Sequence record: NC_070873.1
Reading direction: 5' to 3' (one strand)
Length of the DNA stretch: 64,000 bases
From: Escherichia phage St11Ph5
Below, in pieces: positions 28,661 through 53,022 of the stretch. The translations under genes were made by a program, and so were the position numbers. Within the stretch, counting starts at the first letter, position 1. The number at the start of each line of letters is the position of its first letter. The notes below the pieces were generated by a model. The model had not been told where the DNA came from and made no database searches. It was given only the letters and a program-made list of their open reading frames with translations.

Positions 28661-31600
28661 TTAGTTAGTTAGGTTGAGCCATGGGTTCAGGGTATGGGCA
28701 CGTAAGCCTTGTCCTAAACCGAAGGAGTAACCGAGATTACCCTGTGCAGCAATGCTAAAGATGTTGTCCTGAATAGGAAGACCGACGTTACCAAACATGG
28801 TAGGAGTTGGAGCCAGCATAGCCATAGCAGCATGTACTGGGTTATTACGAATCATGGACACTGCAACTTTTGCAGAACGAATCTTAAAGTTGTAGAACCA
28901 CATTAAACCAACACTTTCCATATATCCACGGAAGCGTCCTGGTAAACGGTCATAGTTAATGAACTCTTCCGTTACACGTCCTAGTGCTTCTTCACGAGTC
29001 TTGCCTTTACGCTGGGTCAGTTCATCATAGATGATTGCTTTAGCGATAAAGTCAGAGTACTCAACTGTCTTCTGGATACCCTGGAAGAGGGCAGTATCCT
29101 TAGTGATAAGTGCATAACGCCCTGCGTTACGTACAGACTTAGGCAGCTTATCAGCCAGCTTATCCATGTATTCGTGAATCTTACCTTCAGTAATCAGGAT
29201 GTCATCACGCCCAATACCAGCATCTGCAATTGAAGAGAACTCACCAGCTTCTAACAGAGGCCAGATACTCAAACGTTTATGGCTATCCGTGATGGACTGA
29301 ATCTCAGCCTTAAGTTTACGAATCTGGTTCGGGTTGGTAGCTGCACGTAATTCTGCTTCTGCATCTACCTGGCGCAGACGAGATTTTAGGTACTGATTAA
29401 TCTCAGCAGTTTTCTGTGGAATGCTCTTAGCAATGTTCTTAACAGGTACACCACGAGCAACCATCTGGTAAAGGTTAGCCAGGAAGTTAACAGCAGGTAC
29501 AACTACTGACTTAACTACAATCAGAGTCTTAGCTTCTTTAACTAAGTTCTGAACCAGATTCTCACCACCCATTACATACTTATAAGCACGGTTGCCAAAT
29601 ACACCCAGCATAGCTTTCTTGAAGGTATCCAGTGTTTCTGGGGACCAACGAGAATTACCAGACCAGGCATCACCAACAGAAGCTGCACGATAACCAAGAG
29701 CATCATTGAGCATGTCACGACGTACCCATAACTCACCCGGACCAAACAGACTTTCTGCTTTCTGACGAGTTTCACTGTTCATCAGCTTAAGTGCATCAGC
29801 AGTTACTGGGTCCAGTTTAGAACCAAGAAGGTTAACGTACTGGGACTTATTAGAGGCAGACATCTTAATATCGTTCTCATACATGCTATGCAGATTCTCA
29901 ATAAGCATGTCGTTGAAACGCTGAGCCTTAGCCTCTTCCACCTGACGTCCACGCCATACACCAATCGCACGAGCAAGATGGTTCTCACCTTCGATGTGCT
30001 TCAGCATATTAGGGTCAATGGATTGCTCGTAAGCAACCACATTACCATTGGCATCATATACAGGCAGCAATGGTTCATTACCACGTTCACCGCGAGCCAG
30101 TGCTTTAGTAACACGGTCCACGGAAGGCTTGTCAGTGATACGACCAGCTACCATGGTTCCCATAGTAAAGCCTGTACCAAGGTCTACGCCACCAGCAGTA
30201 TTGCGAACGTTCTGCAGGATACCCTGTGAGAATGGAGCCTGTGCCTGTACTGGTGCAAAGTAGTAGCTACGTGCTGGCCCACGATTAGCAGAGCTACCCT
30301 GATAAGTGCCCAGTCGTACATAGGATTTCTCAATCAAATCAGCAAACTGACTATCTTCAGCAACAATCAGGTTAACACCCTGTTTAGTCTCACCAGGGAT
30401 ATATCCTTTGTACTGGTTCAAGGTTGCACGACTATCAGACTTAGCTTTAGCCATTTCGTCTTTACGCTGACCAACCAGGTAAGAAGTAGCAAAGTCCATA
30501 CCTTCAATTTCTGTCTGAGCCAGTGAAGATAACATCTCACGGTCAGTCTTATTCATTGCTTCCAGTGCATACAGAGTAATCAGTTTATCCAGCTGAGCTA
30601 CATCTACAACAGAACGTGTAGTCTTACGTTCGCCCAGCAATCGAGAAATTGCAGTAGCATTACGCAGCAGGTTATTACCAACAGTACCATTAATCATGTA
30701 CTGAGCCAGTTGCTTAGATTTACGGTTAATCAAAGACCAGTTACGTCCGGCTTGTTTCTGCAAATCTGCTTCCAGTTTATTAACCTCACGGTCAACAATC
30801 TTCTGGTCAGTTAGCAAGTCACGGATTTCAGCCAAAGACATAGTGTCACGCAGAACAGCTAAGTCAGTTTTACCCATACCGGTATGCATTGCTTTCCACT
30901 CCTCATTAGTCAGCTTACGGCTGAACTTAGATGCGATAGTGGTAGGTAAATGTTCACGGAACTGTTGACGGTCAGCCTGTACCTGTGCACGTACTGCTTT
31001 AATCAAATCATACACAGAAGCATTGCTCTTAGTACGTCCGATTATGTCATTAACCAGGTCATGGAAAGGTTGCCATACTTTACCCTGGTTCATTGCAGCC
31101 ATAACACCTTCAGCTACGATTGAACCATTCTTCTCTGTAGCAATAGCAGCTATCAGTTGTGCAGCATGAGCAGCACCTTTGACCAATGGGTTCTTGGTAT
31201 TAGCCGCAACTTCACGAGCACCTTCCAAAGCACGGGTAGACAGCACATCAATAGAATCCACCAGATACTGGTTAGCACGGTCGATAGCATTACCAGTAGG
31301 AGTAGCAACGGAATCATAGAAGGATTCTGCATTAAGACTGGTCTGCATGATTGTCTGAGCCAGTGCATCCATACCTTCCTGTACGTTAGTGGCTTTAGTA
31401 TCACCTGCAACACGAGCATTCAGACTAGCCATTGCAGCAGTACCGATGTTAGTCAGCATTGCGTCAACAGTATTGCCAGATTTCTTATCTGCTTTCATAA
31501 CAGGAATATCAGCCAGCACCTTACGTACTTCTTCACTTACCATTGCCAGACCAACAAAGGTAGGCAGTAAGGAAGAACGACCATGTGCATCAAACTCAAT

Positions 31601-34600
31601 GTTGTTAGCACCCATGATGGTATCGAACTTCTGCTGTGCATAGTAACGGTCAGCAGGGTTAGTACTATCTGGGTCAGCCATGAATACTTCGACGGTCAGG
31701 TTCTTAGTAACATGTGTGTAGTATTCCTGTGCACGAGCCAGGGCAGCTGGGTTAATAGCAGCCTCAGTAGCTAGTGCAGCAACAATGTTAGTGAAGAGAC
31801 GCTGTTCCTGCATATTCATGGTGAAGCCATGGGCCTGAACATCACGGGTTACTTTGGTTGCATTCACTACTGCATCAGAGAACTTACCTTTGCGAATTAC
31901 TTGCTGTACTGGTTCTGAACCAATGTAGTTAGTAATTAGCTTATCGAAGGTTTTCCCTAATTCTTCCAGACGGGTATTGTTACCATATGCTTTGTTATGG
32001 AACAGGGTAGTGTCTTTGGCTACAGTAGCAGTAGGAGCTTGTCCACGCATTACTACAGCAGAGTTAAACAGTAAGCCAGAGAACATATCATCTGCATTAG
32101 CCGGAGCTTTCTTACGTCCGAATACCAGACGCTTGATTGCTTCATATACAGCCTGAACCATCGTTTTAAGTGCAGTGGTTTTCTTCTGCTTATTAATAAG
32201 TTCACGGTTAGTTAATCCCCAAGCCATGTACTCATTCAGTGCAGCAGCTTTAGCCATTGCTGGTTCAATGAAGCCATTAGACAAGTGACCATTAATGGTA
32301 TTCAGTGCATCAGCATATGCTTCACGTACTGCCGGAGATTCATCATAAACATCCAGAGCACGGAACTGGTTCATCAGGTCTTCAATATTCTGGACAGCTT
32401 CATTAGGAGTACCTTCGTAGTGAGCCAGTACAGATTCAAAAGTAGAAGCATGTACCAATTCATGAACCAGAGTCTCTAATGAAGGAGTAACTAAGTAGAT
32501 GGTCTTATCTTCAAAGTTAGTCCAGCCATATGCATTACCTGCTTCAGCAGCCTCAATATCTTCTGGTGCTGGGCGAGTAATATTCTTCTCAATAGCATAG
32601 GCATCCAGTTGAGAAGGTGTACCATAAACAACCTTATAGTCTTTAGCAGCAAGGGATTTCTGTATTTCTTTCAATACTTCTTGCTGTTCAGGAGACATCT
32701 CTTTAGCCAATTTAGTAATAGCAGTATTAGACAGCAGACGTACACCAGATTTCAGTACACGACCAACTTGTTCCATTGCTGGTACTTCTTTCACTGGTTC
32801 TGCTTTAGCAGCACGTACTGCATCACGACGCTTGTTTAATTCAGCATCAAACAGTTCGTTCAGCTTAGCTACTTGCTGGTCTACAGTTAAACCTTCCAGA
32901 GAGATTTTACCGTTGTTCACATAAGGAGCACCAACAGCAGCCATCTGGTCAACAGTGACCTGTACCTGGTCCATTACCTTGTGACGAATATCTACACCCA
33001 GGGCAATGTTACGCAGATTACGCTCAATTAATGCAATACCAGAATCTTTAATCATAGAAATTTTATAATCTCTATCACCATCTACTCTGGTAATCTGAGC
33101 ACGTTGATCAAAGTCTAAAGCAGACTTCGCAATAGCATCTATTGCTGCATCGGACAGCTTATTTAAATCAACATTCTTAGCAAACTTAGAGAAAGACTCA
33201 TAAACATTCTTGATAGGGTTACCCTGCCAGGAAGTATATACAGCCTCGTTAGCTTTACGGCTTGCATCAGTAATGTCATTGATACCAATGTTCATACCAT
33301 CAAAGATTTTCAGGGTATTCTTTGGAGCACCTTTCATAGTAGAAAGAGTCTGCATCATCATGCCATCACCAGTACCGATGGTCATAAATGGAATACCTGC
33401 TACACCTGCCTGCGAAGGAGCATAGATGCTCATTGGCACACGCATACGGTCATCTAAGTTAGTAGCCAGTACTTGGTTAGCAACATCAGTATTTTCACTA
33501 CCTGCAATGTAGAAAGTCTGGGAACCAGTCTCAATCATTGGAGCCAGTGGTGCTAAGCTATTCTGAATTTCATTCAGTTCTTTCTGTGTTAAGAAATCAC
33601 CTTTCTTCCATGTTGGGTCTTTTTCTTTTTCTGCCAGTTTAGCCTGTACTGCCTGTTGGAACATATCCTGCAATACCAGAGATTGAATCTGGGTAGCCTT
33701 CTGTAAGTTCTCCGTAGATTGCATCAACCCTTCACCAACAGTGAATCGGATACTTTGTCTCATAGGCTCAACAAAGAAGTGCAGCATATTCTCTTGTAAG
33801 TTCTTAAGAGCATCCCCGGATACGGTAAACTCCCGGGGATCTAACTTACCAGTCAGAACACCATCTACTTCTTTAATGAATAACTTACCTTTACGCTTAG
33901 CTGGAATATTTCCAGTCAATGCTTTCATAGAAGTAAGGAAGGTATCCAGCATAGCCTGAGCATCGGCTTCAGATGCAGCCTCCTTACCAAACATCGCCAT
34001 AGCTGGGGAAATGTTAGGGTCAACAGCACGGGCTTTTAGAACGTCGCTTAAGCGTTCATAGATGGTATCAGTAATTGCACTTACCATCTTGCCAGCAATA
34101 CCACGTGCGCCAGAACCATAGATGGTAATGGTTAGTGGGTTTTTAGCGATACCACGTTTCAAGTCCAGAGTACCGTCTTCCTTAAGATTGAAGTCTTTAA
34201 TGAACAAATCCATTAGCTTCTGGAGATGGTCCATCTGGTTTATAACAGGAATATTTTTACTATAAGCATTGCGTAATTCATTTAGATAGAATTGCAGACT
34301 ATTAGTAGATGCTTCATACAGGTCAACACTGTCTTCCTGAGTATGATGCTCATTCATGGTCTTACCGGCTTTACCGAAGAACAAACCACCTTTGGCAGTA
34401 TTCTTAATCCAGTTTGGAGTGAACTTACCACCGGTCATTAATACCATTGCGTTGATTGGACCGTTGGTTACACCATCGGCTTCAACGTACAGTGGGGTAT
34501 TAAAGTTGGCACGGTCATCACTGTTAAGATAACGGGCATATTCCATAAGAGCCATAAGAGCTACAAAGGATTTATCATTACCAAGAGATGTTCTCAGAAT

Positions 34601-37600
34601 ATCCACTGCATCAGTAGGTAAGTATCCAGACTTATCAAACTCAACCATCATATCTACAGCAGGTTTCAGCTTACCTTCCAGAGCTTTGGTAAGTTCTTCT
34701 GACATAGTTTCACGAGTCATTTTATGAACTTTGATACCTAATGCCTGAGCCAGTCCAAGCTGGAAGCCTGAGAAGTCTTCATTGTTCTGATTCGATAAAT
34801 CCAGAGTAGCTTTAGTAGGTAAGATAGCCTCACGAACCAACTTAGCTGATTGAGGATTATATTTACCTAACATCTGCATACGACCAACACGGGTCATATT
34901 GTAAGCATAGTGAATAGGCACAGTGGAAATGTCTTCACTCTGTGCTCTCACCTGTTCAATAACAGAGAACAATTGGTTGTAAGAATCCTCTACTGAACGG
35001 TTTTTACCTTCCAGAGATTTAGCATGGTTCTTATTAAGTAAATCCTTATCCAGAGTACCAGCACCCATCAATTCGAGGATACGGTCTTTACCTAAAGCCT
35101 CATAGAACTGAACCATTGGGGTATGCACAAAGAACTCTGTAGCCTGCTCTGCTTTAAGGGCAGCTTTCTGTTCCGGAGTATTACGGACAGCAGGGTTACG
35201 TAACTGAGTATGAGCCACGGGAGGAATGTCATCACCGAAATACAGTTTCTCTACTGGTTCTACGAGGACAGCTTCCTCGATAGCAGTAGGGAATTTGTTA
35301 ATAGCGTCGGTATCATCCAGCTTCTCAATGGTATACAGACCAATAGTCTTATTGGATTCTGGGTCAATTTCAGACACATCCAGCATGGACTCTTTAACTT
35401 CACCCATTTCAATAAGGGAAGATAGAATCTCTGTAGCCATTGCCATCGGGATACCTTTGGTATAACCCAGTGGTGCATCAGCATTACGATTAAGTCCCCA
35501 GTAAGATTCAATCTTTTGAGCCAGTGAGTTAGTAGCTTCTACTAAGGTTTGTGCATTCTCAAATTCTGCGAGGATACCTTCTGGTAACAAGGAAGCATTT
35601 ACACCAGTAATTGCAGCCACATCCTGCATGTCTTTAATAGCAGCATTCTGTGTAGCAGTAAGTCGCCATTGCAGACCAGCAAGTACAGCAGTCTCTAACA
35701 ATTGGTCATTGAACTTAAAGGTGTCTCCGTCTTTCTCTACGATATTAAGTAACTTACCACCTACCCAACGGTTAGCTTCAGTACCTTCTGCAAAACGTTT
35801 ACCAACGTTCTTGTTAGCAAGGAATTTAGTCAGACGGTCAGACAAAGTAGTCTTCAGAGTTTCACCAAACTCAAATAAGTCCTGGTAACGCTTAATCACA
35901 TCACTTGTGAGAGCGTTATTTTCTTTTTGAGTAAATGCTTCAAAACGAGCAGCAGAAGACAGTGCTTTATTAACATCAGTTAAAGGAGATTCAGAACCAA
36001 TGGTACGGGACTTAGGTTCTTCTGGCAGACTAAATGCTTTAAGGAACTGGTTCGGTGTCTTTTCATTGTTATAGACAGGGAACACTGCTTCCATTCCCGA
36101 TAGAGGTTTACCACCAACAGTATAGTCTGCTTTCAGTTGAGCCAGTGATACTTCTTCTTTCTCAACGTTATTGGTATTAAGCCCAGATGTATCTACACCA
36201 ATCTGAATCAGTGCATTGTTTGCTTCTACGAATGATTGAACAGTATTGAATTGTTCAGCAGTTAGCTTCTGATTATCAAACAATTGCAGAGATACGAACG
36301 GTTGCTCACTACCTTTATAGAAAGTAGAACGTACAGCACCAGTATCCAGAGACATGTCACGATAACCATCATGACCAAATACGTCAGACAGACTGATATG
36401 GTCGCCATTGGAACCAACAACAGTACCATCAGCGAATAGCCATGGACTATCTCTACGGTCACCATACTTATTAAGAGTATCTTGTGAAATAGTATTCTCT
36501 TTCACATAAGAATCTCTTTCAGATTCAGTAGGCTGTTCAACGATATCCTGTTTTTCAGACTGGTTCTCAGGTTCTTTTACGGTTTGTGGTTTAGACTCTT
36601 TAATAGTAGGTTCTGTTTTAACAGCTTCACTAACAGAGGGTTTAGTCTGTACAGTAGGGGTAACTGGTTCCTGTTTTGTAACAGGAGCTTCATCAACCTG
36701 ATTCACTGGTTCATTAGTCTGTTGGGATTGAGCAGCATCAAGATTGCCCTGACGGAACTCTTTAACTACCTGGGCAGCAGGCTTGTTCAGACGTGAATCC
36801 AATGGGGTAACTTTCACATGAGAAACATTAAGCTCCGGGTAAGCCGTAGCAAGTGCGTTAGCAATATCAGCTACGGTCTTGGCTTCCAGTCCTACTTGCT
36901 GGGCAAACTTAACAGACTTGGTATCATACGGATTGACACCGAGGCCAGTACGACTACGTACCCATTCACGCGAGGGAGTAAGAGCCTGATAATGGACAGA
37001 CTTATTCTTATCCGCATTCCCAGAAATCAGATGCTCATTCAACGCTCCGACCTTATTCTGCATGTGCTGGGCGAACTTCATAAAGTCGTCGAGATAAGCG
37101 GAAGCCAAATCGAAGTTACCAGAGTTGTACGCAGAACGAATGCGTTTAGCATGTTGCAACGCAGAGTACTGGCCTTCATTAGAACGAGACTCGTCGGTTT
37201 TAATCTGTTTACTAACAATGTCTTGAGGACGTAAGCCTAGTTCTTCTGCTTTAGCATCAAATTCTCGTGCTCCTTGTAATAGAGCAGCAGCAGATTGCAG
37301 GGCAGCACGCTGACGATTCCCCAGTGTAATCTTACCTTCACTTGCATGTTTCAGAACCATGTTCACTGAATCTGCATCCAGCACTTCTGGAGACATATCA
37401 GCAGCCATAGCAATGTTGTTTGCCTGAGCTTGGTTAGCTTCTTCAGTAGCTTTCAGTTTACCTGCTTCAGCCTGTTCCTGAATCATAGAATGGATGGCAC
37501 GGAATGCACGGAGTACCTTCGGTGTATTCTGAACATTAGCCATCAGGCCAGAGAATTGGTCAACAATATTAGCAGCAGGAGAACCCTGTTCCAGATTAGC

Positions 37601-39466
37601 CAGAGCACCAGGGTCACGGTTAATGAAGCTATCCATAGACATGATGTTGTCATACATCTGGATTGCAGCTTCCATTTGAACGTTAGGGTCTTCGGCAGTA
37701 TTAACCAGGTCAGCCATCTTCTGAATAGCTTCAACACGGTTAGTGGAACCAGAAACAGCTTCACGGATTGCCGGGCTAGCTTGTTCCAGTTCTACTGGGT
37801 CAAACTTCATTGCCTGAGTTAAGTCAGCAGCATACTGAGTAGCAGCAGCTTTCTCTTCAGGAGAAATATCCATTGCATCTACTGCTTCCTGAACAGTTGC
37901 TTGAGCCTGTTCTGCCTGAGCAGTAGCTTCTTGTGCAGCAGCATTAACTGTAGCGTCTGATACAGGGGATGCTTGTTCATTTCGCTTAGCAACTTCTTCG
38001 CCACGCTGAACCAGGATGTTAGTAATAGGAGAAGCAGCTTTTGCTAATGCATTACCAGCCAGAGAAGCAGCAGCCATGGTAGTACGTACAGCAGGACCAA
38101 CGGCAGCACCAGCAGCTTTAACAGTTGCACCAGGAGCTTGAGCAACTCCAGCAGAACCGAAGCCATACAATGCACCAAGCCCGGTTTGTTCACCAACACC
38201 TTTAAGCAAATCACGCTTAGCATCTACATTACCTTGAATTGCCTTGTTCTGTGCAAGCTGACTTGTACCAGACTGGATACCTTCTTCTACAGTCTCACGC
38301 AGCATGTTAGAACCAGCACCAGCCAGTGAACCTACCTTAAGTGGATTAAGTTCAAACTTGGATACCAGTGGACCAGTAAGAGCAGCAACCGGAGCAGTTA
38401 AGCCAGCAGCAGTAATACCTGTTTCAGATGCAGTTTGACGACGTGCTTCTTCAGGAGATAAACCATCTTTAATATGCTGTTGGTATACAGGGGATTTAGC
38501 AGCCAGTTCACTAAACGGCATTTCCATAATTTCATTAGCAGTTTGTTGGTATGCACCACCAGCTTCCATACCACCAATTGCTATAGCAGGTGCAGCAACA
38601 CGACCAGTAGCCAATGCAACCTGTGCAGGACGTGAACCTAATTCAGCAGCTAAGGTAATACCCTTAACAGCTTTATCCCCACCTACCATTACTTTACCGA
38701 GTGCGGATACACCACGAATCAATGGACCACCGGTAAAGAGAGAACCAACACCCTCAGCCAGACCATCAGTAGCAGCCATGCCATTGGACAAAGTGTTAAC
38801 AACAGAATCGTAAGCATCACGTCCAATGCGAGACAGGGAAGCAACGAGTTCGCTTTCTCCTTTAGCAATATCCTGCTTATAGAGTTTCTCATTCTCCTGT
38901 GCAGATATTACGTTCTGGTTCTGTACTACATTACGACGAGCATTCAATGCATCAGACTGTAGGTTATGTACACCTTTATTCAACCAGTCAAGACCGGAAG
39001 CAATGGATGCCCCGGCATTATCATTGACCAAGCCTGTGCCAAGAGCAGCAATGCCCCCAAGGGTATTAGCAACACCAAGACCAACACCAGAAAGGGTATC
39101 ACCAAGTGCTTCACCATATGTACGACTCTTAGTTAAATCACGACGAACAGCATTAGCTGCATTGACACGAGCATTGAGAATGTCCATTCCTTGCTCATTG
39201 CCGTACTTGTTTATGATTTCAAGAGGAGAGGCGTTAGTAAAATCTGCCTGAATAGAACCTGGGTCAAATGCACCAGCACCTAAGTTACCAGTACGACCTG
39301 CCTGCAATTGGTAGGCATTCTGAGGAGTTAATTGGAAAGGGTTTTGCCCTTGTTCAGCTTGTTTCCGAGAGGTTGCAGTAGAGACATCGACTTGCTTAGC
39401 AGTAGTGATGCTGTCTGCGAAACCTGCCAGACGGTCAAATGTTGACATAGCATGATTCCTGTTCAA
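28661..39466 (-). CDS. virion-encapsidated RNA polymerase (N4 vRNAP-like giant protein)
   Basis: Single 3601-aa ORF; size and genome position match N4 gp50; central segment ITIYGSGARG compatible with single-subunit RNAP motif B. Confidence 0.8.
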   Translation of the reverse strand: MNRNHAMSTFDRLAGFADSITTAKQVDVSTATSRKQAEQGQNPFQLTPQNAYQLQAGRTGNLGAGAFDPGSIQADFTNASPLEIINKYGNEQGMDILNARVNAANAVRRDLTKSRTYGEALGDTLSGVGLGVANTLGGIAALGTGLVNDNAGASIASGLDWLNKGVHNLQSDALNARRNVVQNQNVISAQENEKLYKQDIAKGESELVASLSRIGRDAYDSVVNTLSNGMAATDGLAEGVGSLFTGGPLIRGVSALGKVMVGGDKAVKGITLAAELGSRPAQVALATGRVAAPAIAIGGMEAGGAYQQTANEIMEMPFSELAAKSPVYQQHIKDGLSPEEARRQTASETGITAAGLTAPVAALTGPLVSKFELNPLKVGSLAGAGSNMLRETVEEGIQSGTSQLAQNKAIQGNVDAKRDLLKGVGEQTGLGALYGFGSAGVAQAPGATVKAAGAAVGPAVRTTMAAASLAGNALAKAASPITNILVQRGEEVAKRNEQASPVSDATVNAAAQEATAQAEQAQATVQEAVDAMDISPEEKAAATQYAADLTQAMKFDPVELEQASPAIREAVSGSTNRVEAIQKMADLVNTAEDPNVQMEAAIQMYDNIMSMDSFINRDPGALANLEQGSPAANIVDQFSGLMANVQNTPKVLRAFRAIHSMIQEQAEAGKLKATEEANQAQANNIAMAADMSPEVLDADSVNMVLKHASEGKITLGNRQRAALQSAAALLQGAREFDAKAEELGLRPQDIVSKQIKTDESRSNEGQYSALQHAKRIRSAYNSGNFDLASAYLDDFMKFAQHMQNKVGALNEHLISGNADKNKSVHYQALTPSREWVRSRTGLGVNPYDTKSVKFAQQVGLEAKTVADIANALATAYPELNVSHVKVTPLDSRLNKPAAQVVKEFRQGNLDAAQSQQTNEPVNQVDEAPVTKQEPVTPTVQTKPSVSEAVKTEPTIKESKPQTVKEPENQSEKQDIVEQPTESERDSYVKENTISQDTLNKYGDRRDSPWLFADGTVVGSNGDHISLSDVFGHDGYRDMSLDTGAVRSTFYKGSEQPFVSLQLFDNQKLTAEQFNTVQSFVEANNALIQIGVDTSGLNTNNVEKEEVSLAQLKADYTVGGKPLSGMEAVFPVYNNEKTPNQFLKAFSLPEEPKSRTIGSESPLTDVNKALSSAARFEAFTQKENNALTSDVIKRYQDLFEFGETLKTTLSDRLTKFLANKNVGKRFAEGTEANRWVGGKLLNIVEKDGDTFKFNDQLLETAVLAGLQWRLTATQNAAIKDMQDVAAITGVNASLLPEGILAEFENAQTLVEATNSLAQKIESYWGLNRNADAPLGYTKGIPMAMATEILSSLIEMGEVKESMLDVSEIDPESNKTIGLYTIEKLDDTDAINKFPTAIEEAVLVEPVEKLYFGDDIPPVAHTQLRNPAVRNTPEQKAALKAEQATEFFVHTPMVQFYEALGKDRILELMGAGTLDKDLLNKNHAKSLEGKNRSVEDSYNQLFSVIEQVRAQSEDISTVPIHYAYNMTRVGRMQMLGKYNPQSAKLVREAILPTKATLDLSNQNNEDFSGFQLGLAQALGIKVHKMTRETMSEELTKALEGKLKPAVDMMVEFDKSGYLPTDAVDILRTSLGNDKSFVALMALMEYARYLNSDDRANFNTPLYVEADGVTNGPINAMVLMTGGKFTPNWIKNTAKGGLFFGKAGKTMNEHHTQEDSVDLYEASTNSLQFYLNELRNAYSKNIPVINQMDHLQKLMDLFIKDFNLKEDGTLDLKRGIAKNPLTITIYGSGARGIAGKMVSAITDTIYERLSDVLKARAVDPNISPAMAMFGKEAASEADAQAMLDTFLTSMKALTGNIPAKRKGKLFIKEVDGVLTGKLDPREFTVSGDALKNLQENMLHFFVEPMRQSIRFTVGEGLMQSTENLQKATQIQSLVLQDMFQQAVQAKLAEKEKDPTWKKGDFLTQKELNEIQNSLAPLAPMIETGSQTFYIAGSENTDVANQVLATNLDDRMRVPMSIYAPSQAGVAGIPFMTIGTGDGMMMQTLSTMKGAPKNTLKIFDGMNIGINDITDASRKANEAVYTSWQGNPIKNVYESFSKFAKNVDLNKLSDAAIDAIAKSALDFDQRAQITRVDGDRDYKISMIKDSGIALIERNLRNIALGVDIRHKVMDQVQVTVDQMAAVGAPYVNNGKISLEGLTVDQQVAKLNELFDAELNKRRDAVRAAKAEPVKEVPAMEQVGRVLKSGVRLLSNTAITKLAKEMSPEQQEVLKEIQKSLAAKDYKVVYGTPSQLDAYAIEKNITRPAPEDIEAAEAGNAYGWTNFEDKTIYLVTPSLETLVHELVHASTFESVLAHYEGTPNEAVQNIEDLMNQFRALDVYDESPAVREAYADALNTINGHLSNGFIEPAMAKAAALNEYMAWGLTNRELINKQKKTTALKTMVQAVYEAIKRLVFGRKKAPANADDMFSGLLFNSAVVMRGQAPTATVAKDTTLFHNKAYGNNTRLEELGKTFDKLITNYIGSEPVQQVIRKGKFSDAVVNATKVTRDVQAHGFTMNMQEQRLFTNIVAALATEAAINPAALARAQEYYTHVTKNLTVEVFMADPDSTNPADRYYAQQKFDTIMGANNIEFDAHGRSSLLPTFVGLAMVSEEVRKVLADIPVMKADKKSGNTVDAMLTNIGTAAMASLNARVAGDTKATNVQEGMDALAQTIMQTSLNAESFYDSVATPTGNAIDRANQYLVDSIDVLSTRALEGAREVAANTKNPLVKGAAHAAQLIAAIATEKNGSIVAEGVMAAMNQGKVWQPFHDLVNDIIGRTKSNASVYDLIKAVRAQVQADRQQFREHLPTTIASKFSRKLTNEEWKAMHTGMGKTDLAVLRDTMSLAEIRDLLTDQKIVDREVNKLEADLQKQAGRNWSLINRKSKQLAQYMINGTVGNNLLRNATAISRLLGERKTTRSVVDVAQLDKLITLYALEAMNKTDREMLSSLAQTEIEGMDFATSYLVGQRKDEMAKAKSDSRATLNQYKGYIPGETKQGVNLIVAEDSQFADLIEKSYVRLGTYQGSSANRGPARSYYFAPVQAQAPFSQGILQNVRNTAGGVDLGTGFTMGTMVAGRITDKPSVDRVTKALARGERGNEPLLPVYDANGNVVAYEQSIDPNMLKHIEGENHLARAIGVWRGRQVEEAKAQRFNDMLIENLHSMYENDIKMSASNKSQYVNLLGSKLDPVTADALKLMNSETRQKAESLFGPGELWVRRDMLNDALGYRAASVGDAWSGNSRWSPETLDTFKKAMLGVFGNRAYKYVMGGENLVQNLVKEAKTLIVVKSVVVPAVNFLANLYQMVARGVPVKNIAKSIPQKTAEINQYLKSRLRQVDAEAELRAATNPNQIRKLKAEIQSITDSHKRLSIWPLLEAGEFSSIADAGIGRDDILITEGKIHEYMDKLADKLPKSVRNAGRYALITKDTALFQGIQKTVEYSDFIAKAIIYDELTQRKGKTREEALGRVTEEFINYDRLPGRFRGYMESVGLMWFYNFKIRSAKVAVSMIRNNPVHAAMAMLAPTPTMFGNVGLPIQDNIFSIAAQGNLGYSFGLGQGLRAHTLNPWLNLTN

Positions 39467-39551: not shown

Positions 39552-41498
39552 TTATCGAGGTTGCATATAGGGAGGTAAACCCTCTGCTAATTTTCGATAA
39601 CGTTTAGCTCGTTCTTCATCTTCACGACTACGCTCACGTTCTACTGAAGCATTAGAACGGAAGTTCTGTGGAACCAGGTTTCCTTGGTCAGCTACCACAG
39701 TATTGACAGCAGCATCTAGTGCAGCTCGTGCTCTTGCTAACTCAGCCTCACGAGCAGGAATAGTAGCAGCAAGTCCACTTTGCCCAGCAGCTACACGACG
39801 ACGGGTATCAGCAAGCAAGGCTTCTGCTTGTGTTACCTGGTTCTGAGCATTTTCAATATTACCCTGTACCTGAGTAAGAACATTATCACGAGCAGTAGCT
39901 TCAATACCTTCCCCACGTCGTACCGAACGTGCTAGTTCTCTGGCAACGGTATCATCAATACGAATACCACCACCACCCTCATTGGAGATGAATGGATTAA
40001 GTGCATCAAGTGCTCGACTAATCATACCTTCCGGTACGTTGGTAGTAGACTGCTTAAGAATCTCAGCAGCTACAGCAGGAGACTGACCGGATTCCTGCAT
40101 AACATCATTCAGTCGAGCTATCATCCATCCTTTCTCAGAACCTTTAAAAGCATCCTTAAGAAGACGGTCTGCTACTTCACCAATGGTAGAGTTGTCACGT
40201 AATGCACGAGCATAGTTAGCAGTAATAGTTCCAGTATTATCTTCAGACTGGCGAGCAGCAACTGTATTGCCTGCCATGTTTGAGACTACTTGCTGGGTCT
40301 GTAACTGTTCAAGAGGTGCACCTACTTCTGCCTGTGCAATTAACTGACGTGCTTCACTCCATGGCATATCCTTATAACCACCAACACCCAAGTCAGGCAA
40401 TGCAGCCCAAGTCTTGGAAAGGTTACCACTCTTACGGTCATTGAAGATTGCTTCAGCTATTTTGTCCTGTACTTCAGGAGTCATTTGCTGATTACGCCAA
40501 TCTGAACCAAGCACCTTAGGTGCATAGTCTTCCAGAGTAGCTTTATTAATCTGAAATGCTCCTACAGGGGAATGACCTTGTGACGGGTTATTAATCATAG
40601 TTTGTTGATGATTAGTAACCTCACCCAGTGTCATTTCAGTAATAGGCTTATCAGTAGCAGCAAAGGTATATGTTGCATCATAAGGAGAACCAGAACGAGT
40701 ACCAGCAGTTCCCGGAGCAGGGCCAGAAGGAGACACAGCATAAGTACCCGGGAATCTCTGGTTCACACCTCGCATGATTGCAGCACGTACACCAGGAGAA
40801 GCATTCTGCATAGCAGACTCTGCCAGTGTAAGAGCATCCATAGGTGTAGAAGCACTACGGAAAATGTCTGTCAATATACCGGATGCAGCTTGTGAATCAG
40901 CATCATTACGTTGAGCCACACCCAAATCAAAACGGTTCTGTGCTTGGTTAATAGCCTGACCACCTTGCCCTTGAAGACGACTCAGCATATCCAGTTGTTG
41001 ATCAGCAGGGAGTGTAGACAGTGCCTCTCGGGTTTGTCCCAATGCAGAATTAATACGGTTCTGGTCACCGGACTGATAAGCCTCAGACAGCAGTCGAATA
41101 GCTGGAGAAGCATTATCCAGTGCAGAGTTAACATCCTTTAAGCGACCAAAGTTATAAGCATTGAAGTCATTGATTCCCTGTTGACCTTGCTGAGTCAGAA
41201 GTGTACCTGCTCGCTCATCCAGATTCTGAAGGGTATGTTGGTTTACCAATGAAGGGTCAACCCCCTGAAACAGTGCACCAGATGCCAGAGCATTACGATA
41301 CTCAGTAGGGTCTTGATACTGCATAGCATTCATCATGACGGCATTGCCAGCCTCCTGCTTGGCAGCGTTCTGGAAGTTACCCAGTGCATCACTTAAGCCG
41401 GAGGTGGCGCTACCAATCATGCTTCCAAATGTGCGAATGCTGTCACCAACTCCGGAGAAGTTAGGTGCATCAACATTACGCCATGTAATTTGAGCCAT
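39552..41498 (-). CDS. virion protein (N4 gp51/52-like position)
   Basis: 648-aa ORF upstream of vRNAP in late operon; Gln/Ala-rich; product by synteny. Confidence 0.4.
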   Translation of the reverse strand: MAQITWRNVDAPNFSGVGDSIRTFGSMIGSATSGLSDALGNFQNAAKQEAGNAVMMNAMQYQDPTEYRNALASGALFQGVDPSLVNQHTLQNLDERAGTLLTQQGQQGINDFNAYNFGRLKDVNSALDNASPAIRLLSEAYQSGDQNRINSALGQTREALSTLPADQQLDMLSRLQGQGGQAINQAQNRFDLGVAQRNDADSQAASGILTDIFRSASTPMDALTLAESAMQNASPGVRAAIMRGVNQRFPGTYAVSPSGPAPGTAGTRSGSPYDATYTFAATDKPITEMTLGEVTNHQQTMINNPSQGHSPVGAFQINKATLEDYAPKVLGSDWRNQQMTPEVQDKIAEAIFNDRKSGNLSKTWAALPDLGVGGYKDMPWSEARQLIAQAEVGAPLEQLQTQQVVSNMAGNTVAARQSEDNTGTITANYARALRDNSTIGEVADRLLKDAFKGSEKGWMIARLNDVMQESGQSPAVAAEILKQSTTNVPEGMISRALDALNPFISNEGGGGIRIDDTVARELARSVRRGEGIEATARDNVLTQVQGNIENAQNQVTQAEALLADTRRRVAAGQSGLAATIPAREAELARARAALDAAVNTVVADQGNLVPQNFRSNASVERERSREDEERAKRYRKLAEGLPPYMQPR

Positions 41499-41510: not shown

Positions 41511-41954
41511 TTAACGAGTTAGCTTATTAGCTGCAATGTAAGCATCAGCTGAAGACTGGTCACGGTTCTCTGCTGTAGCACGACTACGAGCACGGTCTTC
41601 TAGTGCAGTGTTATAAGACTTAATCTGGTTATTCAGGTTAGTGTTAGTAACACTCTTAGCAAAGTTCAACTGGTCTTTGGCTAACTTATTAGCCTGGAAA
41701 CCACTGTAGATATTAGCTAATGAACCAAGTGCACCAAGCCCTAACTGAAAGGTAGGTACGTTCATGCCCAACTGATTAGCTGAACCAGACATGAGCGAAG
41801 TAGGGGTAGATGCACCCAAATTAGTACCCATACCAATAGCTGCACCTGGGTTATAGTTCATAGCCGAGGTATTAAAGTTCTGATTGTTATTAGACATCCA
41901 AGACATAGCAGCTGGCTGTGGGGTTTGGTTGCCTGTTAAGAATGACAAATCCAT
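41511..41954 (-). CDS. hypothetical virion protein
   Basis: 147-aa ORF in structural block. Confidence 0.4.
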   Translation of the reverse strand: MDLSFLTGNQTPQPAAMSWMSNNNQNFNTSAMNYNPGAAIGMGTNLGASTPTSLMSGSANQLGMNVPTFQLGLGALGSLANIYSGFQANKLAKDQLNFAKSVTNTNLNNQIKSYNTALEDRARSRATAENRDQSSADAYIAANKLTR

Positions 41955-41967: not shown

Positions 41968-44622
41968 TTAAACTAGGTCAGTATTAAGGGTCATGTCAGA
42001 GTAGTTGCCAATCATGTCTAGAGACAAGTCAGCTATATCTGAACCAGTCATAAGAGTACGTGATAAGAATGAATCCAGTGACTCCATTGACACGAATTGC
42101 ATTGGGTCAATTACACCCTGCCCAGCAGTACCAAACATTTCTTCATACTGCTTATTGATTGCCATCATATCAGTATTGTACTGCTGCATTACTTTCTCTG
42201 CTTTCTGAATAGTAGCAGCCGTAGATGCATTAATATACTGACTAATACCATTACCTACCGAACTGGTAAGCTGCATGATGTTTTGGGCATTCATCATCTC
42301 ACCTGCTAGGGTGGATAAGGATGTACCAGTAGACAAAGCAGTACCAACATTCATAGCTACCAATGAAGCAATAGCAGCAATGATAAAACCTAGCTTATCT
42401 CCGAACAGTGCAGTGGATACTTTTGTAGTAATGGATATCAGAATCATTGCAGCAATAGCATTTGCTACAGCACCAACTATTACAGCAGCTAATCCAACAA
42501 AACCAAGAGAAGCACCAACTGCACCATATGCTCCAAGTATACCTGCACCACCAGCACCCATAGTGAATACGGATACAACGACAGCAACTACAACAACCAC
42601 AATCTTAAAAGCAGATGTTTGGTACCACTTCTGCTTAACCTTCTTATATGAGTTCATCACTAAGTAGGAACAGGCAGTGGATAACTGAGTACTTCGAACC
42701 AGTGACATTGAACGGTAGATGTTAGTATGTAGTGGAATAATGAATCCACTCTCCTCTGCATCACCCATTGCTTCGGCAACATCAATGTGCACTGACTTAT
42801 TCTTATATACCCTGTTATTGTGGTTTAGACCCAGTACCCTGAGTTTACGGTAAGTGTTATTACCATCCTGCCAAAGCAACTCATACTCCTGCATCGAATA
42901 GAATGTATATGTTACTTCAAGTTTCTTAGCAGAACCGGAGTTAGAAGCTGTCCTTATGTTCTTGCGAGTAAGAGTTATATCTCCTGCATACCTGGCTCGA
43001 AGTTGTCCTTGCTTAGCACCAGACCATGCTTGTCCTGAGTGAGTAGTTTCGGATACATAGTTCCAGCCAATAGTCATGTCATATTTGTAATGCTTATTAC
43101 TATGTACCCTAAACTCTCGCTTAGGTATGACTGGATATTCTGGAAGTGGCGGGGGAGTTCCAATAGTATGCCCCTCAGTTCTGTTCCACCATTCTACATA
43201 TACATCAACTGCATCATTAGCTGCCTGATACCCTGCAATCACTGCCTCCAAAGTTGGGTAGGTTGGGTCAGGAGGGAATGCTTCAGTAGCCATCTGAAAG
43301 AAGCGATAGATGTATTCCTTGGCAGTATCTTCAGGAGTATTAAGAGATACACCGAATGTTCCATAAATGTACTGAATATCACCTATATCATCATTCTTCT
43401 TAAGCTCTGTCACTACCTTATCAATTTTCCCACCAGTAGCTTTATAAAGGGCTTTCTTACAGTGTGGGTAGATTGGGTCATTCTCTACCCATTGTTTATC
43501 ATTCCTGATTGGAATGAATGGATAGAACCGGTTATCAGTAGCCTCAGTTTCAAACAGTGAATCTAGTGCAACGTTACCAGAGTTCTGCTTATAGATAAGC
43601 ATCTTAGGCGTACCAACAGCAGTCATCTCAGTATCAGTACGAGTAGTCTGAGATGAGTACTTACGAACCAGTGTCTCTGTGGTTGTAGTAATTGTATCGG
43701 TACGAGTAACACCACCACCTATATCAACTACATTGGTAGTCACAACAGTACTGGACTGAATCTCACCAAACTTTTTATGAGTCATTACTCTGTCAGATAC
43801 AACTACAGTCACATCATCAGGTTTCTCAGTGAATCCTCTACGGTAAACCTTAACGTAAGAGTTCCAGTTATCCACACTTGGCTCAGTGACAGTACTATCT
43901 TCATCTGGTCTGCCATCAGAGTAAACAGAATGAGTATGTATAGTCTTAATAAGGTTGGTTGTATTAGCCGTCGTATCGCTTGAAATGGTAGTCCATAACA
44001 AAGTGGAGGGTAAGTCATCCTCATCATCATAGACAGTAGTCGGTCCTACTACAGGTGGATTAATAGAAGGGGATTTGTAAAAAGAGTAATCAGCATAGAG
44101 ATACAAAGCACCTGGTTCAAAGTTAGTAGGTGTGAATTTAATAGTAGAACCTCCATCCAAGGAGGTCATAGTAATTTCATTGATATCTTCATCAATGTCG
44201 ATGTCGAATCGTTCCATGATTCGACTTGGAGCATTCTCATAAAGATACTGGTCACACCATTGTTCAAAGTCAGCAAAGCCAATCTCTGCTGCCTGAACGT
44301 AGACAGACTCTCCAGCAGGTGGTGTAATTTGACCCTCTATAACAGTAGGGTCAATCTTAGCCAGTACACCTAATGAAGAACCAGCCATGCCAACTTCTGA
44401 ATCATAGTGATTCTTACTCCAGCTGGAGAACAGTCGCATACGAATACCCGGCCCATTCAGATAACTATCAGAGATAGTGTCTGCCATAGTGAATCCTGTA
44501 TTTGAAACGATATTGCCTATGACTACAGTCTTCATATAGTTAGGGCGTTTATGTATATCCCCTGCCATGTTATAGACAGAGGATGCTACGTATACTTTGG
44601 TCTTCCCACTGAATAAGCCCAT
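41968..44622 (-). CDS. large virion protein with C-terminal multi-pass membrane region
   Basis: 884 aa; C-terminal about 120 aa Gly/Ala/Val-rich with 3 predicted TM helices. Confidence 0.45.
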   Translation of the reverse strand: MGLFSGKTKVYVASSVYNMAGDIHKRPNYMKTVVIGNIVSNTGFTMADTISDSYLNGPGIRMRLFSSWSKNHYDSEVGMAGSSLGVLAKIDPTVIEGQITPPAGESVYVQAAEIGFADFEQWCDQYLYENAPSRIMERFDIDIDEDINEITMTSLDGGSTIKFTPTNFEPGALYLYADYSFYKSPSINPPVVGPTTVYDDEDDLPSTLLWTTISSDTTANTTNLIKTIHTHSVYSDGRPDEDSTVTEPSVDNWNSYVKVYRRGFTEKPDDVTVVVSDRVMTHKKFGEIQSSTVVTTNVVDIGGGVTRTDTITTTTETLVRKYSSQTTRTDTEMTAVGTPKMLIYKQNSGNVALDSLFETEATDNRFYPFIPIRNDKQWVENDPIYPHCKKALYKATGGKIDKVVTELKKNDDIGDIQYIYGTFGVSLNTPEDTAKEYIYRFFQMATEAFPPDPTYPTLEAVIAGYQAANDAVDVYVEWWNRTEGHTIGTPPPLPEYPVIPKREFRVHSNKHYKYDMTIGWNYVSETTHSGQAWSGAKQGQLRARYAGDITLTRKNIRTASNSGSAKKLEVTYTFYSMQEYELLWQDGNNTYRKLRVLGLNHNNRVYKNKSVHIDVAEAMGDAEESGFIIPLHTNIYRSMSLVRSTQLSTACSYLVMNSYKKVKQKWYQTSAFKIVVVVVAVVVSVFTMGAGGAGILGAYGAVGASLGFVGLAAVIVGAVANAIAAMILISITTKVSTALFGDKLGFIIAAIASLVAMNVGTALSTGTSLSTLAGEMMNAQNIMQLTSSVGNGISQYINASTAATIQKAEKVMQQYNTDMMAINKQYEEMFGTAGQGVIDPMQFVSMESLDSFLSRTLMTGSDIADLSLDMIGNYSDMTLNTDLV

Positions 44623-44623: not shown

Positions 44624-45466
44624 TTAGTTCAGCCCGTTGTTAGACTTCAGCTTGGTCAGAATGGTATCAATACTTGCGTTAGTGAAGCCATTCGGTGGGT
44701 TCAAGCCTTCGTCAATAGTCTTCTGAGTAATCCATGCATCAGTAAACAACTTAGATGCTTTAACCTCTGCATCACGTTGGTAAGAAGTAATCTGTTGAGA
44801 GTACAACTCTTTCTGTTTACCTACAGAACCCTTAACTACTGCACCATCAGTACGAGTGTCCAGCGTCTGTGCACGTTGTGCTTCTGTCTGCTCAGTAAGC
44901 AATTTAAGCTGTTGGGGTAACATCTGACTAGCATTAAACAATGCAGCACAGTATGTCTCAGACTCAGTAGCAATCTTTAACTTAGTAAGTGCATATTCAC
45001 TCTTAGCAGACAATGCCTGAATCTTAGCTAGTACATACTGAGCTTTAGAGGTAGCCAATGTGACACGAGCAGTAACTGCTTGAATCTGTGCCAGTGCAGC
45101 AGCCCAGTATGCCTGGTCACGACCAAGTAAGAACTGAACAGCATTACTCATGCAAGATTCCATCATAGCAATGTATGCTTTGGTATATTCACCACCTGTA
45201 ATGCGGTTAGCCTTAAACTCAGCTTTAAGGTGATTGTGAGCAGATTCCATTAATGCATCAAACGTACCACTACCACCTACTTCACGGGTAGTAAGGGATT
45301 CATTGGTTATTTTGGTAATGGCTCCAAAGATTGGAGAATCATCCCCACCTGGGATATCCCATTCGGGACCGGACATATCAATATCAGGGAGGGTAAAGTC
45401 ATCACCCTTAGTCAACTCTTCAAGGAGTCGGTTAGCTTCTACCTCAGCAGAACAAGACATAATCAT
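44624..45466 (-). CDS. hypothetical virion protein
   Basis: 280-aa ORF, helical-looking sequence; structural block. Confidence 0.4.
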
Positions 45467-47464: not shown

Positions 47465-48685
47465 TTAAAGACTACCCGGTACTGGGAGTTTAGCGAAATC
47501 TTCATCACTCATAGCGAGTGGGTTTACAATAGGTGTTGCTTTACGTGTAGCAGCCCGATTAAGGGAAGCTGCTTTAGCTTGCTCGTTGTTAGCCAGAGTT
47601 TGCTTAGGTTGTGCTACACGCACTACCGGCTGAACTGCTGGTTTAACTGCTTGTACCGGTTCAGGCTTAGCCACTTGGTTAAATGCTCCTTGTTGTGCAA
47701 GGAGGTTACCAACGTAGTTATAAGCCTGAATGAACGGAGTACCTACCGGAATCTGACCTAACACCTGAAGACGATTCACTTCATTAGCAATGGTGTCATA
47801 AATACCATTCTCACGTTGTTCGTGAATAGTGTGGAGTAGACCACGATTCTGATAAAGAGCATCTTTACTGGCAGCATCCCATGTCGAGCTAATAACACCT
47901 AATGTAGCTTGTCCTTCTTGAGTAGACTTTAAGTCGTCAATTTCGGTTGCAAAATCTGCTTCGGTGTCTGTAACACGGTGTTTGCCACCCTGGTAGTTAA
48001 TTTCCTCTTCTGGATTAAAGTCCAGAGGATCTGTACCAGAGTCCTTCAACAACTTTTTAATGGCTTCAGGATTCTTCTTATCCAGGTCAATCAGGAAAGA
48101 AAGTTTTTCCTCATCCATTAAACCGTTGTTTTGTAGCATCAGCATTACCTTACGGTACGGCTGAAGTTCTTGCATCTTACGAGTATAGTTAGCACCCATC
48201 TGCATCAGGCTAATGGCCTCCTCCGGTGAACGGGGAGTAATCATTTTGCCGTTAGCTTTAAAAGGAGCCATCAACTTCTCATAACCTTCCTTATAGTTGA
48301 AGTCAGCAGGCAGACCTTCAGACTGTTTGCCTTCTTCTTTCTGTTCCTGGCCTGGTTCAGCAGTAGAAGGTTCAGCTTTAGTAATCGGCTTACCGTTACT
48401 ATCAACTTCTGTGTCAACAACTTTATCATCAACTTTATCAGAAGTTAAAGAATTTGCTGAATCATCTTCATCTGGGTCAGGTTCAGTGGAGGTTTCTTCG
48501 GTTGGTAGGTCTTCAACAGCAGGGGTGTCAACTTCTTCATCAGGAGTCTGTACGCCGTTGGTTTCTGGGTTGTTCTGAGTGGAAGTGTCTTCCTCAGTGA
48601 TAATAGCTGGGGCTTCCATATTCAGAATCTCATCATCCGACATTGCGAGAATGTCGGAAGCTGTGGTTGCAGCTTCCGTAGTCAT
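47465..48685 (-). CDS. scaffolding-like acidic protein
   Basis: 406 aa, very acidic Thr/Glu/Asp-rich N-terminal third; located between portal and capsid genes. Confidence 0.4.
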   Translation of the reverse strand: MTTEAATTASDILAMSDDEILNMEAPAIITEEDTSTQNNPETNGVQTPDEEVDTPAVEDLPTEETSTEPDPDEDDSANSLTSDKVDDKVVDTEVDSNGKPITKAEPSTAEPGQEQKEEGKQSEGLPADFNYKEGYEKLMAPFKANGKMITPRSPEEAISLMQMGANYTRKMQELQPYRKVMLMLQNNGLMDEEKLSFLIDLDKKNPEAIKKLLKDSGTDPLDFNPEEEINYQGGKHRVTDTEADFATEIDDLKSTQEGQATLGVISSTWDAASKDALYQNRGLLHTIHEQRENGIYDTIANEVNRLQVLGQIPVGTPFIQAYNYVGNLLAQQGAFNQVAKPEPVQAVKPAVQPVVRVAQPKQTLANNEQAKAASLNRAATRKATPIVNPLAMSDEDFAKLPVPGSL

Positions 48686-51335: not shown

Positions 51336-51842
51336 TTATTCCTGTTCAAAAAGTTTACGGTCAGCCTGAATCTGTTTACCCAACTCAATTAGTTGGCTGT
51401 CACGGAGTCTAACAGTTGCCCGGAGTTCTTCAACCAAACGTCTGCCTTCTTCAAGACTGTTGTCGAGTCTGGCTGCATGGCTTGCAAGACTTCTGCACTC
51501 AAAGGTTCCGGATTCGGCTTGACGTTTATATACCGATGCTCGTCTTTCAGACTGTTGCATCCGGCTGTCGTAATCACTGCTAACGCGAGCAAGCTCGCTT
51601 GCGTAATTACTCTCAGCCGTCTGCAACCGGGAAGTGAGTAACCCGACTTCATAACTATGGTTTCTTTGGAGAGCATTGTATTTGTCCTGTAATTTTTGTG
51701 TTGCCTTTTGGTCTTCGACCTTTTGGGCATCCCACTTCTTTTGAACAGTAGACTGTCCATTGGAGTTACCCCAAAAGTAAATGGTGGCCCCAAGGACCAC
51801 CACCAGAAGATAAGGCCAACCTTTAGAGATTAGCATCTTCAT
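51336..51842 (-). CDS. Rz-like i-spanin
   Basis: N-terminal [23 protein letters not shown] then coiled-coil-like periplasmic domain; contains embedded lipoprotein ORF in +1 frame; ORF 51336..51863, start trimmed to internal Met. Confidence 0.55.
51389..51652 (-). CDS. Rz1-like o-spanin lipoprotein (embedded in Rz)
   Basis: Signal peptide with lipobox-like TTAGC then Pro-rich NVKPNPEP; entirely inside Rz in another frame; start Met uncertain. Confidence 0.45.
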   Translation of the reverse strand: MKSGYSLPGCRRLRVITQASLLALAVITTAGCNSLKDEHRYINVKPNPEPLSAEVLQAMQPDSTTVLKKADVWLKNSGQLLDSVTAN

Positions 51843-52458
51843 TACATGCCTCCAGTGGCACATTGCCTATTCGGTTAGCTACCCAACCATACGTAAAGTC
51901 TGGCATGTTTAATGAGGTGTAGTGGTTCAGTTGTTTGGCATCAAGTAACTTAATCATTACCTGACATGCTGCAACTTTGCCTCGTTTTTTCTGTAATGCT
52001 TTATATGCATTAACAGTACTTGTACCGACTTTACCATCAACCTGTATTTTAGGGTAGTCTTTGCCGTCACGGGACATTTCATTAAGAGATAACTGCAACC
52101 ACTTAGCAGGACGGGTTACACCAGTGTTAACACCAGCATCAACCAGCTTGTGTGTTACAGCAGGAGATATATCAGCAAAGGCTACGAAGTTAGGCTTAAG
52201 TACGTAGTCATCAATGTATATCTCAGCAGCCATCTCTTTAGACAAACCTTTCATAGAACCATCCCAACCATACTCAGTAGCCAGAACTTCTTTATGAGAT
52301 TTAGCTACCGATTGGGTAATTCCATGGTTAGTTTCCCCACCTGGGTCACGAGGATTGTTTACGTAACCCCCTTCCATATAGAACACTGCCCCCAGGATAG
52401 CAGCGACAACTCCTCCCACTGCACCACCTTTCGCAGCAAGTTTTTGTTTAGCTTTCAT
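51823..52458 (-). CDS. endolysin, GH108-type muramidase with N-terminal SAR-like segment
   Basis: GGYVNNPRDPGGETNHGIT matches GH108 N-terminal signature; N-terminal Gly/Ala-rich weakly hydrophobic AAKGGAVGGVVAAILGAVFY. Confidence 0.6.
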   Translation of the reverse strand: MKAKQKLAAKGGAVGGVVAAILGAVFYMEGGYVNNPRDPGGETNHGITQSVAKSHKEVLATEYGWDGSMKGLSKEMAAEIYIDDYVLKPNFVAFADISPAVTHKLVDAGVNTGVTRPAKWLQLSLNEMSRDGKDYPKIQVDGKVGTSTVNAYKALQKKRGKVAACQVMIKLLDAKQLNHYTSLNMPDFTYGWVANRIGNVPLEACNEDANL

Positions 52459-52708
52459 GTGAATCTTCCTTTGGTCGGAAACGTATTAATCTGCCTATGA
52501 TATTTAAGGCAAACAGTGCGATTGCAATATTGGAACCATGAGGAATGTCTTCCAGGATGTGTCGAGGTAATCCTGTCAGCATTGGTTGGATAATATCTAT
52601 GGCAGAAAACATAATTAACCCAAGCGTACTAATCTGAATGGATGCCCACTTCCAGCATCTTTTCCAGTTAGGTACTAACTCTACCTTTCTATTTAACCTG
52701 CGAACCAT
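52448..52708 (-). CDS. holin-like membrane protein
   Basis: ORF 52448..52774; from internal Met about 86 aa with two hydrophobic helices; immediately upstream of endolysin. Confidence 0.4.
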   Translation of the reverse strand: MVRRLNRKVELVPNWKRCWKWASIQISTLGLIMFSAIDIIQPMLTGLPRHILEDIPHGSNIAIALFALNIIGRLIRFRPKEDSHES

Positions 52709-53022
52709 GCGAATATCTCCCGTCTTGCAGCAGCCAATACACCAATAATTGCACCTGCCCCAGCCCATACCCACTTACCGAAAATCCCTGCACCAACAAC
52801 TTTATGCTTAATGGTGATGAACTCTTCAATAGTAGGTTCATTCTTAGCTAAGCTATCCTCCACATTCTTTAGTCTATTGCCTATGTCATTGATTGAATCT
52901 CGTAGTTCTACTAGAGTCTCCTCTAGTTTCTCACGGTCCTGCCTTTCCCTTGTCTGGTTCTCAAACAGAGTCTTCAATCGTTCCTCCAACCTGACTAGGA
53001 GTAGTTCACCCGATTCATTCAT
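52693..53022 (-). CDS. membrane protein with coiled-coil N-terminus (holin/antiholin candidate)
   Basis: 109 aa; C-terminal TM VVGAGIFGKWVWAGAGAIIGVLAAA. Confidence 0.4.
   Translation of the reverse strand: MNESGELLLVRLEERLKTLFENQTRERQDREKLEETLVELRDSINDIGNRLKNVEDSLAKNEPTIEEFITIKHKVVGAGIFGKWVWAGAGAIIGVLAAARREIFAWFAG

Follow-up and report, generated by a model that had tools for sequence, protein, structure and literature searches.

N4 gp53 is the tail plug of phage N4. The protein was detected in virions by LC-MS and was built into a cryo-EM map (PMC13434306; Bellis et al., Nat Commun 2026). Its globular core, which carries a feather-shaped beta-sheet, sits outside the 12-mer gp54 tube, and the base of the tube is corked by a "hydrophobic knot" of six short helices built from two segments of the chain, residues 29-56 and 670-716. 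The N4 model covers residues 9-724, and the C-terminal ~160 aa lie in the tail lumen, where they are unresolved. A single copy of the plug is bound by one gp65 sheath subunit through D9-D10, so that the tail has a 12:6:1 symmetry mismatch. Full particles carry the plug, and so do particles emptied in vitro. The N4 authors propose that receptor binding leads to lateral displacement of the plug, and that the plug C-terminus is a ripcord for the luminal gp52. Pore-forming or channel activity has been measured for N4 gp51 and gp52, not for gp53 (PMC13434306).

Two other phages have comparable proteins. DEV gp74 is a conserved plug that is likewise present in one copy, and it is held by the gp56-gp55-gp54 receptor-binding fibre (PMC12892993); the feather of N4 gp53 is missing from it (PMC13434306). 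The Shigella phage Moo19 encodes gp70, a 96 kDa product described as "similar to N4 gp53", which was identified as a virion protein by mass spectrometry. Moo19 particles show an unassigned plug density at the tip of the tube and a single asymmetric side appendage.

The corresponding gene of Escherichia phage St11Ph5 is located at 41968..44622 on the minus strand of the window, the 64,000-nucleotide stretch of NC_070873.1 analysed here. It is one ORF with an ATG start that encodes 884 aa plus a stop codon, according to the ORF list and the translation. These coordinates and this length are exactly those given in the original prediction, which did not state the strand. That prediction described a large virion protein with a membrane domain at its C-terminus, used as an ejection or channel component. 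A PDB sequence search matched residues 1-883 to chain FA ("Gp53") of 9YFT with E=0. The second PDB match was chain M of 9ZE4 ("N4 gp53-like protein"), with an E-value of 5.5e-18 over aa 601-867. Entry 9ZE4 also holds the DEV gp75 tail tube, and chain M is therefore DEV gp74. The protein falls in PHROG 2220 (phrog_2220; 1109 bits, aa 1-883), and a Pfam scan returned no family at E up to 1. N4 gp53 is a full-length ortholog (E=0, 885 aa against 884 aa here), and the two proteins are alike in gene position, beta-feather, knot segments and C-terminal tail. Identity to the N4-type cluster representative P0053 is about 55% overall; over the last 285 aa, the N4-type comparison gives 68%. The nearest phage records by this protein, at 93-97% identity, are Escherichia phages PBM-3, PhAPEC5, EC1-UPM and phi G17, which we take to be G7C-like members of the Schitoviridae.

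We put the probability at roughly 85% that the product of 41968..44622 is a single-copy tail plug, the ortholog of N4 gp53 and DEV gp74, in a G7C-like (Gamaleyavirus-type) N4-like phage. The plug identity is backed by strong homology at the sequence level, and the copy number, the location, the hydrophobic knot and the luminal tail would be carried over from N4 at about 55% identity. The earlier assignment to the virion agrees with the detection of N4 gp53 in particles by two methods, with the mass spectrometry of Moo19 gp70 and with the homologous plug of DEV. The protein is an already known, recently characterised and ordinary structural protein, and not a new membrane channel. In GenBank, most of the close relatives among the matches listed carry the label "hypothetical protein", and PHROGs labels the family "unknown function"; both labels could give way to "tail plug, N4 gp53 family". 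The plug times the release of the giant RNA polymerase and the DNA in N4-like phages, and so bears on host range and on the stability of therapeutic particles.

The gene neighbourhood is that of N4. On the minus strand, the order is portal, gp58-like, gp57-like, MCP, gp55-like, gp54-like tube, plug, gp52-like, gp51-like and vRNAP. The gp54-like tail tube gene (44624..45466, minus strand) matches the Moo19 tail protein (3e-149) and N4 Gp54 (6e-125) in the PDB, with a single nucleotide between its stop codon and the plug ATG. On the other side of the plug is a gp52-like ejection protein gene (41511..41954, minus strand; PDB 9yf4_OA, N4 16.5 kDa protein, 7.5e-44), followed by a gp51-like ejection protein gene (39552..41498, minus strand; PDB 11mn_A "66 kDa protein", 2.7e-115; PHROG 6126, virion structural protein). 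The gp50-like vRNAP ORF (28661..39466, minus strand; 3601 aa) is the only ORF of 1000 aa or more in the window. It was placed by synteny with the N4 gp50-gp54 cassette, and its TTG start is a mechanical ORF start only. The plug gene had been described as next to the vRNAP gene, and the gp52-like and gp51-like genes in fact stand between them. The comparison with the N4 gp51-54 region that had been suggested as a check places a gp53 ortholog within the N4 gene order. DEV gp74 shares the position downstream of the tube gene.

The predicted fold of the core is also that of a plug. In the AF2 model, computed with the alignment of 44 homologs described below, aa 7-668 are confident (pLDDT mostly 75-93), and aa 688-884 have a pLDDT below 50, as is expected where the fold of a segment depends on the tube. 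The PDB library used with Foldseek held entries to April 2026 and 9YFT is later, so the structural comparison is with DEV 9ZE4. The model matched 9ZE4_M with an E-value of 4.9e-17, a probability of 1.0 and a TMt of 0.56, at 12% identity in the structural alignment. DEV gp74 (740 aa) has a matching core fold and shares the C-terminal module (aa 601-867 here) with its KWYxxGxFK motif and hydrophobic helices; it differs in its low overall identity to the St11Ph5 protein, in lacking the beta-feather and in being held by a fibre.

The hydrophobic stretch of the original prediction is real, and it lies at aa 672-765. Ala makes up 20% of this block, Val 18% and Gly 14%, together 52% against about 20% elsewhere in the protein, and the first 671 residues are rich in Thr, Ser, Val and Asp. 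The block had been placed at the end of the protein, at a length of about 120 residues with about three transmembrane helices. It is about 94 residues long, and is followed by ~120 polar, acidic, Met-rich residues that are predicted to be helical. The three hydrophobic strings listed earlier were found at aa 674-686, 707-729 and 746-757. We calculated hydropathy by Kyte-Doolittle and as 19-residue sums on the Hessa apparent free-energy scale (the 2005 values), a simple scale and not a trained predictor. The Hessa sums are -0.0 for aa 674-692, -1.0 for aa 711-729 and +1.5 for aa 744-762. The first two segments are long enough to span a bilayer with a dG of about 0 or lower and are clearly TM-like, whereas the third is marginal. 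Such windows are confined to aa 672-765, and before residue 640 none scores below +8. Charged residues are absent from aa 674-733, and directly before the block is a Lys-rich segment (aa 655-673, 42604..42660, minus strand) with 5 K and zero acidic residues. With this Lys-rich flank, the two segments of about 0 or lower dG and the short uncharged loops, the region by its sequence alone looks like a helical membrane hairpin.

In the N4 virion, the equivalent of the first half of this region is not a membrane domain. The HMMER alignment to N4 gp53 is ungapped over the knot and the hydrophobic blocks, with a +4 offset in the C-terminal block, so the N4 knot corresponds to aa 29-56 and 674-720 of the St11Ph5 protein. 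The N-terminal half (44455..44538, minus strand) contains AF2 helices at aa 29-39 and 46-55. The C-terminal half of the cork (aa 674-720, 42463..42603, minus strand; N4 670-716) would comprise helix 1, a Gly-rich linker and the start of helix 2. By this mapping, about half of the supposed TM domain would be a buried protein cork in the virion. In N4, residues 670-716 are buried with residues 29-56 as a helical knot in the gp54 tube and the rest is in the lumen, which does not support the reading of this region as a membrane domain within the particle. Hydrophobic helix 2 continues, and the marginal helix 3 follows, in aa 721-762 (42337..42462, minus strand); AF2 predicts helix here, at a pLDDT below 50. 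The last modelled residue of N4, 724, is residue 728 here, so that very little of the N4 equivalent of this segment, which lies in the tail lumen, is covered by the model. The polar tail that follows (aa 763-884, 41971..42336, minus strand) is presumed to reach up the tail lumen. It is 10% Met, has 12 D/E versus 4 K/R in aa 801-884, and contains the conserved residues E847, F852, R855, T856 and G860. The original prediction named absence from virions, or burial of the region as beta structure, as grounds for its rejection. The orthologs are present in virions; burial of the region is seen, but in helical form and not as beta structure.

The conservation of the protein follows the same parts. 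When 44 homologs with identities as low as 34% were aligned, conservation was highest in aa 1-30, 601-735 and 826-884, and the knot-forming segments and the C-terminal module have a conservation of 0.60-0.72. Residues G703, G707, A713, G717 and G745 are invariant, as are W666 and F672 of the conserved KWYQ..FK motif in the Lys-rich segment. The motif also occurs in DEV gp74, UTK0001 and VCO139. DEV gp74, a 775-aa Ithacavirus protein and a Pacinivirus protein share the order of K-W-Y-x-x-G-x-F-K motif, hydrophobic helices and acidic tail. A profile of aa 600-884 matched, at E up to 1e-3, 2125 representatives of clusters built at 50% identity, and in every one of the best 150 of these the module is C-terminal. 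Judged from these alignments, the hydrophobic feature is not a matter of chance composition; it is among the best conserved parts of the protein and recurs in other subfamilies of the Schitoviridae. From the invariant Gly and Ala residues we infer tight packing of helix against helix in the cork, rather than helices that face lipid.

As judged from the homologous solved structures, the first ~670 residues would form a globular core with the beta-feather outside the distal end of the dodecameric gp54 tube. The chain would enter the tube, where aa 674-720 and aa 29-56 would fold against each other into a compact knot of short helices, which would cork the tube and hold back the DNA and the ejection proteins. 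The rest of the hydrophobic region and the acidic helical tail (aa ~721-884) may run up the lumen beside copies of gp52. When the receptor-binding fibre meets the host, the plug would be pushed sideways, and its luminal C-terminus may be pulled out as the ripcord of the N4 authors, with release of gp52, gp51, the vRNAP and the DNA. The role of aa 721-762 and of the tail in this scheme is conjectural, as the knot covers only about half of the hydrophobic region. Of the earlier claim that the protein is an ejection component for the vRNAP and DNA, a virion protein that controls ejection is kept. A membrane channel is not, given the single copy, the presence of the plug on emptied particles and the pore activities of gp51 and gp52.

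The way in which the plug is held appears to differ from N4. N4 holds its plug via gp65 D9-D10, whereas the 64-kb window of St11Ph5, outside which lies about 8 kb of the genome, contains no gp64/gp65 homolog and has two tailspike-type proteins instead. At 53-58 kb, the matches of the tail genes are to tailspikes and to the N-terminal adaptor of Moo19, B2 and N4 gp66, not to gp65. A 635-aa tailspike and a 945-aa fibre protein are encoded between the lysis genes and a gp67-like adaptor, and the likeness of the 945-aa protein to the N4 gp66 adaptor is limited to its first ~80 residues. With no gp65 sheath in the window, the plug must be held by some other tail protein, and its release must be triggered in another way than in N4. 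The plug holder in St11Ph5 is possibly one of the two tailspike/fibre proteins. Moo19 has close homologs of the St11Ph5 tail tube and of the N-terminus of its tail fibre, and its asymmetric side appendage, likened to the DEV fibre, is by analogy a candidate plug holder.

The hydrophobicity of the C-terminal block could have a use beyond plugging. The domain might be kept in the lumen and, after release of the plug, insert in the outer or inner membrane of the host to anchor or pilot an ejectosome for the vRNAP and DNA. The predicted insertion energies of the two stronger segments, the marginal third, the Lys-rich stretch ahead of them and the uncharged aa 674-733 are all consistent with this, and GenBank annotators have also called the KP8 and Philippe homologs membrane proteins. 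The layout is kept across the subfamilies of the Schitoviridae, and the N4 model (PMC13434306) stops short of half of the hydrophobic region and of the tail, which leaves them room for such a role. The phi29 tail-knob protein gp9 offers an analogy, with no sequence or fold relationship to the plug in the Pfam scan or by Foldseek; gp9 is a hexameric tube protein, and gp53, by contrast, is a single-copy cap. The pore-forming loop of gp9 (PMC6542822, citing Xu et al. 2016) gives an earlier case of hydrophobic elements that are stored inside a short podovirus tail and may reach the membrane on ejection. Against this, one copy per virion, as in N4, would be unable to line a channel of ~35 A, and the plug density stays on emptied N4 particles, even if these were emptied in vitro. 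The conservation at the level of single residues, invariant Gly and Ala included, also suits specific protein packing more than a generic lipid-facing helix. We therefore regard a dual use of this kind as quite improbable. A version fitted to the single copy gives the C-terminal module two lives. It would be cork and luminal tail in the virion and, on triggering by the receptor, would leave the tube first and insert in the host envelope as a pilot or anchor that marks the assembly site of gp52 and gp51. Functionally, it would be like the gp9 loops or the C-terminus of a siphophage tape measure. Such a role, if true, would explain the TM-grade hydrophobicity of the plug, its Lys-rich flank and the conservation of the module over the 2125 cluster representatives, and we consider it speculative and on balance unlikely.

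Two further readings concern the producing cell and tail assembly. TM-like segments in a protein made in the cytoplasm could be caught by the membrane-insertion machinery, and might then act in the producing cell, as an inner-membrane anchor for gp53 during tail assembly or in lysis or exclusion. This is very improbable, as the structure of mature N4 virions shows the corresponding residues within the tail tube, the gene starts 1 nt after the stop of the tube gene within the structural block, and the lysis genes are elsewhere (51.3-52.5 kb of the window). A luminal C-terminal tail that is helical and conserved at its very end also recalls the C-terminus of a tape measure, and it might be tape measure-like or act as an assembly chaperone that nucleates the gp54 ring, with plugging secondary. 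The tube consists of one 12-mer ring and offers no length to gauge, and neither Pfam at E up to 1 nor the Foldseek fold search found tape measure homology; this reading is hardly credible.

The beta-feather of this plug is an insertion of four long antiparallel strands at aa ~180-342 (43597..44085, minus strand), and a separate AF2 model of the domain has a pLDDT of 91.5. The full-length plug gave weak fold matches to aerolysin-type toxins, secretins and porins. In the beta-feather model these matches stayed weak, and they represent a generic resemblance between long strands. An aerolysin-type beta-pore fold for the beta-feather was rejected, with a best TM of 0.30 or lower, an rmsd of about 20 A and one E-value below 1e-3. 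The insertion also divides the family by length. Most proteins among the best 150 of the 2125 profile matches are about 720-760 or about 880-910 aa long, and the shorter class, represented by the 738-aa homolog P0125, lacks aa ~180-342. The still shorter proteins among these 150 are probably fragments.

The hydrophobic block of the tail plug, an Ala/Val/Gly-rich stretch of this N4 gp53-family protein (aa 672-765) with TM-like segments, has already been taken as a membrane domain by other annotators. The homolog in KP8 (MG922974.1) is annotated as 'putative 4 transmembrane helical domains containing protein' and that in Philippe (MZ326861.1) as 'putative membrane protein'. Among the matches listed, the remaining GenBank homologs are mostly labeled 'hypothetical protein', and a few are labeled as structural or tail proteins.

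Elsewhere in the plug, the AF2 model places an insertion, the beta-feather, at aa ~180-342 (43597-44085), where four strands, each 24-31 residues long, are predicted to run antiparallel (pLDDT 91.5). Plug homologs of ~740 aa do not carry it. The modeled beta-feather is unlikely to represent an aerolysin-type toxin or a secretin fold, as matches to both were weak (TM ≤0.30). The C-terminal tail (aa 763-884; 41971-42336) is acidic and has an unusually high Met content (10%). Close to its end is a conserved E-x4-F-x2-R-T-x3-G motif (E847, F852, R855, T856, G860).

The published roles of the ejection proteins encoded between the plug and vRNAP genes need to be treated with caution, since their source is internally inconsistent. 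The abstract of PMC13434306 assigns the outer-membrane complex to gp51 and the periplasmic tunnel to gp52, but its discussion and Fig. 8 legend swap these roles. The vRNAP ORF itself (28661-39466, minus strand) is 3601 aa when counted from a TTG, the first possible start codon past the upstream stop. The gp57-like protein (47465-48685, minus strand) falls in PHROGs phrog_2120, whose label 'tail length tape measure protein' looks doubtful for a podovirus with a tube made of just one 12-mer ring.

No homologs of the N4 sheath proteins gp64/gp65 were found at 51336-61407 or among ORFs of at least 1000 aa across the whole window. In N4 the gp65 sheath retains the plug, so another partner would have to do this here. 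The place of the sheath is taken by two other proteins in the window: 53239-55146 encodes a 635-aa tailspike, and 55591-58428 encodes a gp66-like fibre protein (945 aa) with an N-terminus matching the adaptors of Shigella phage Moo19, B2, and N4 gp66.
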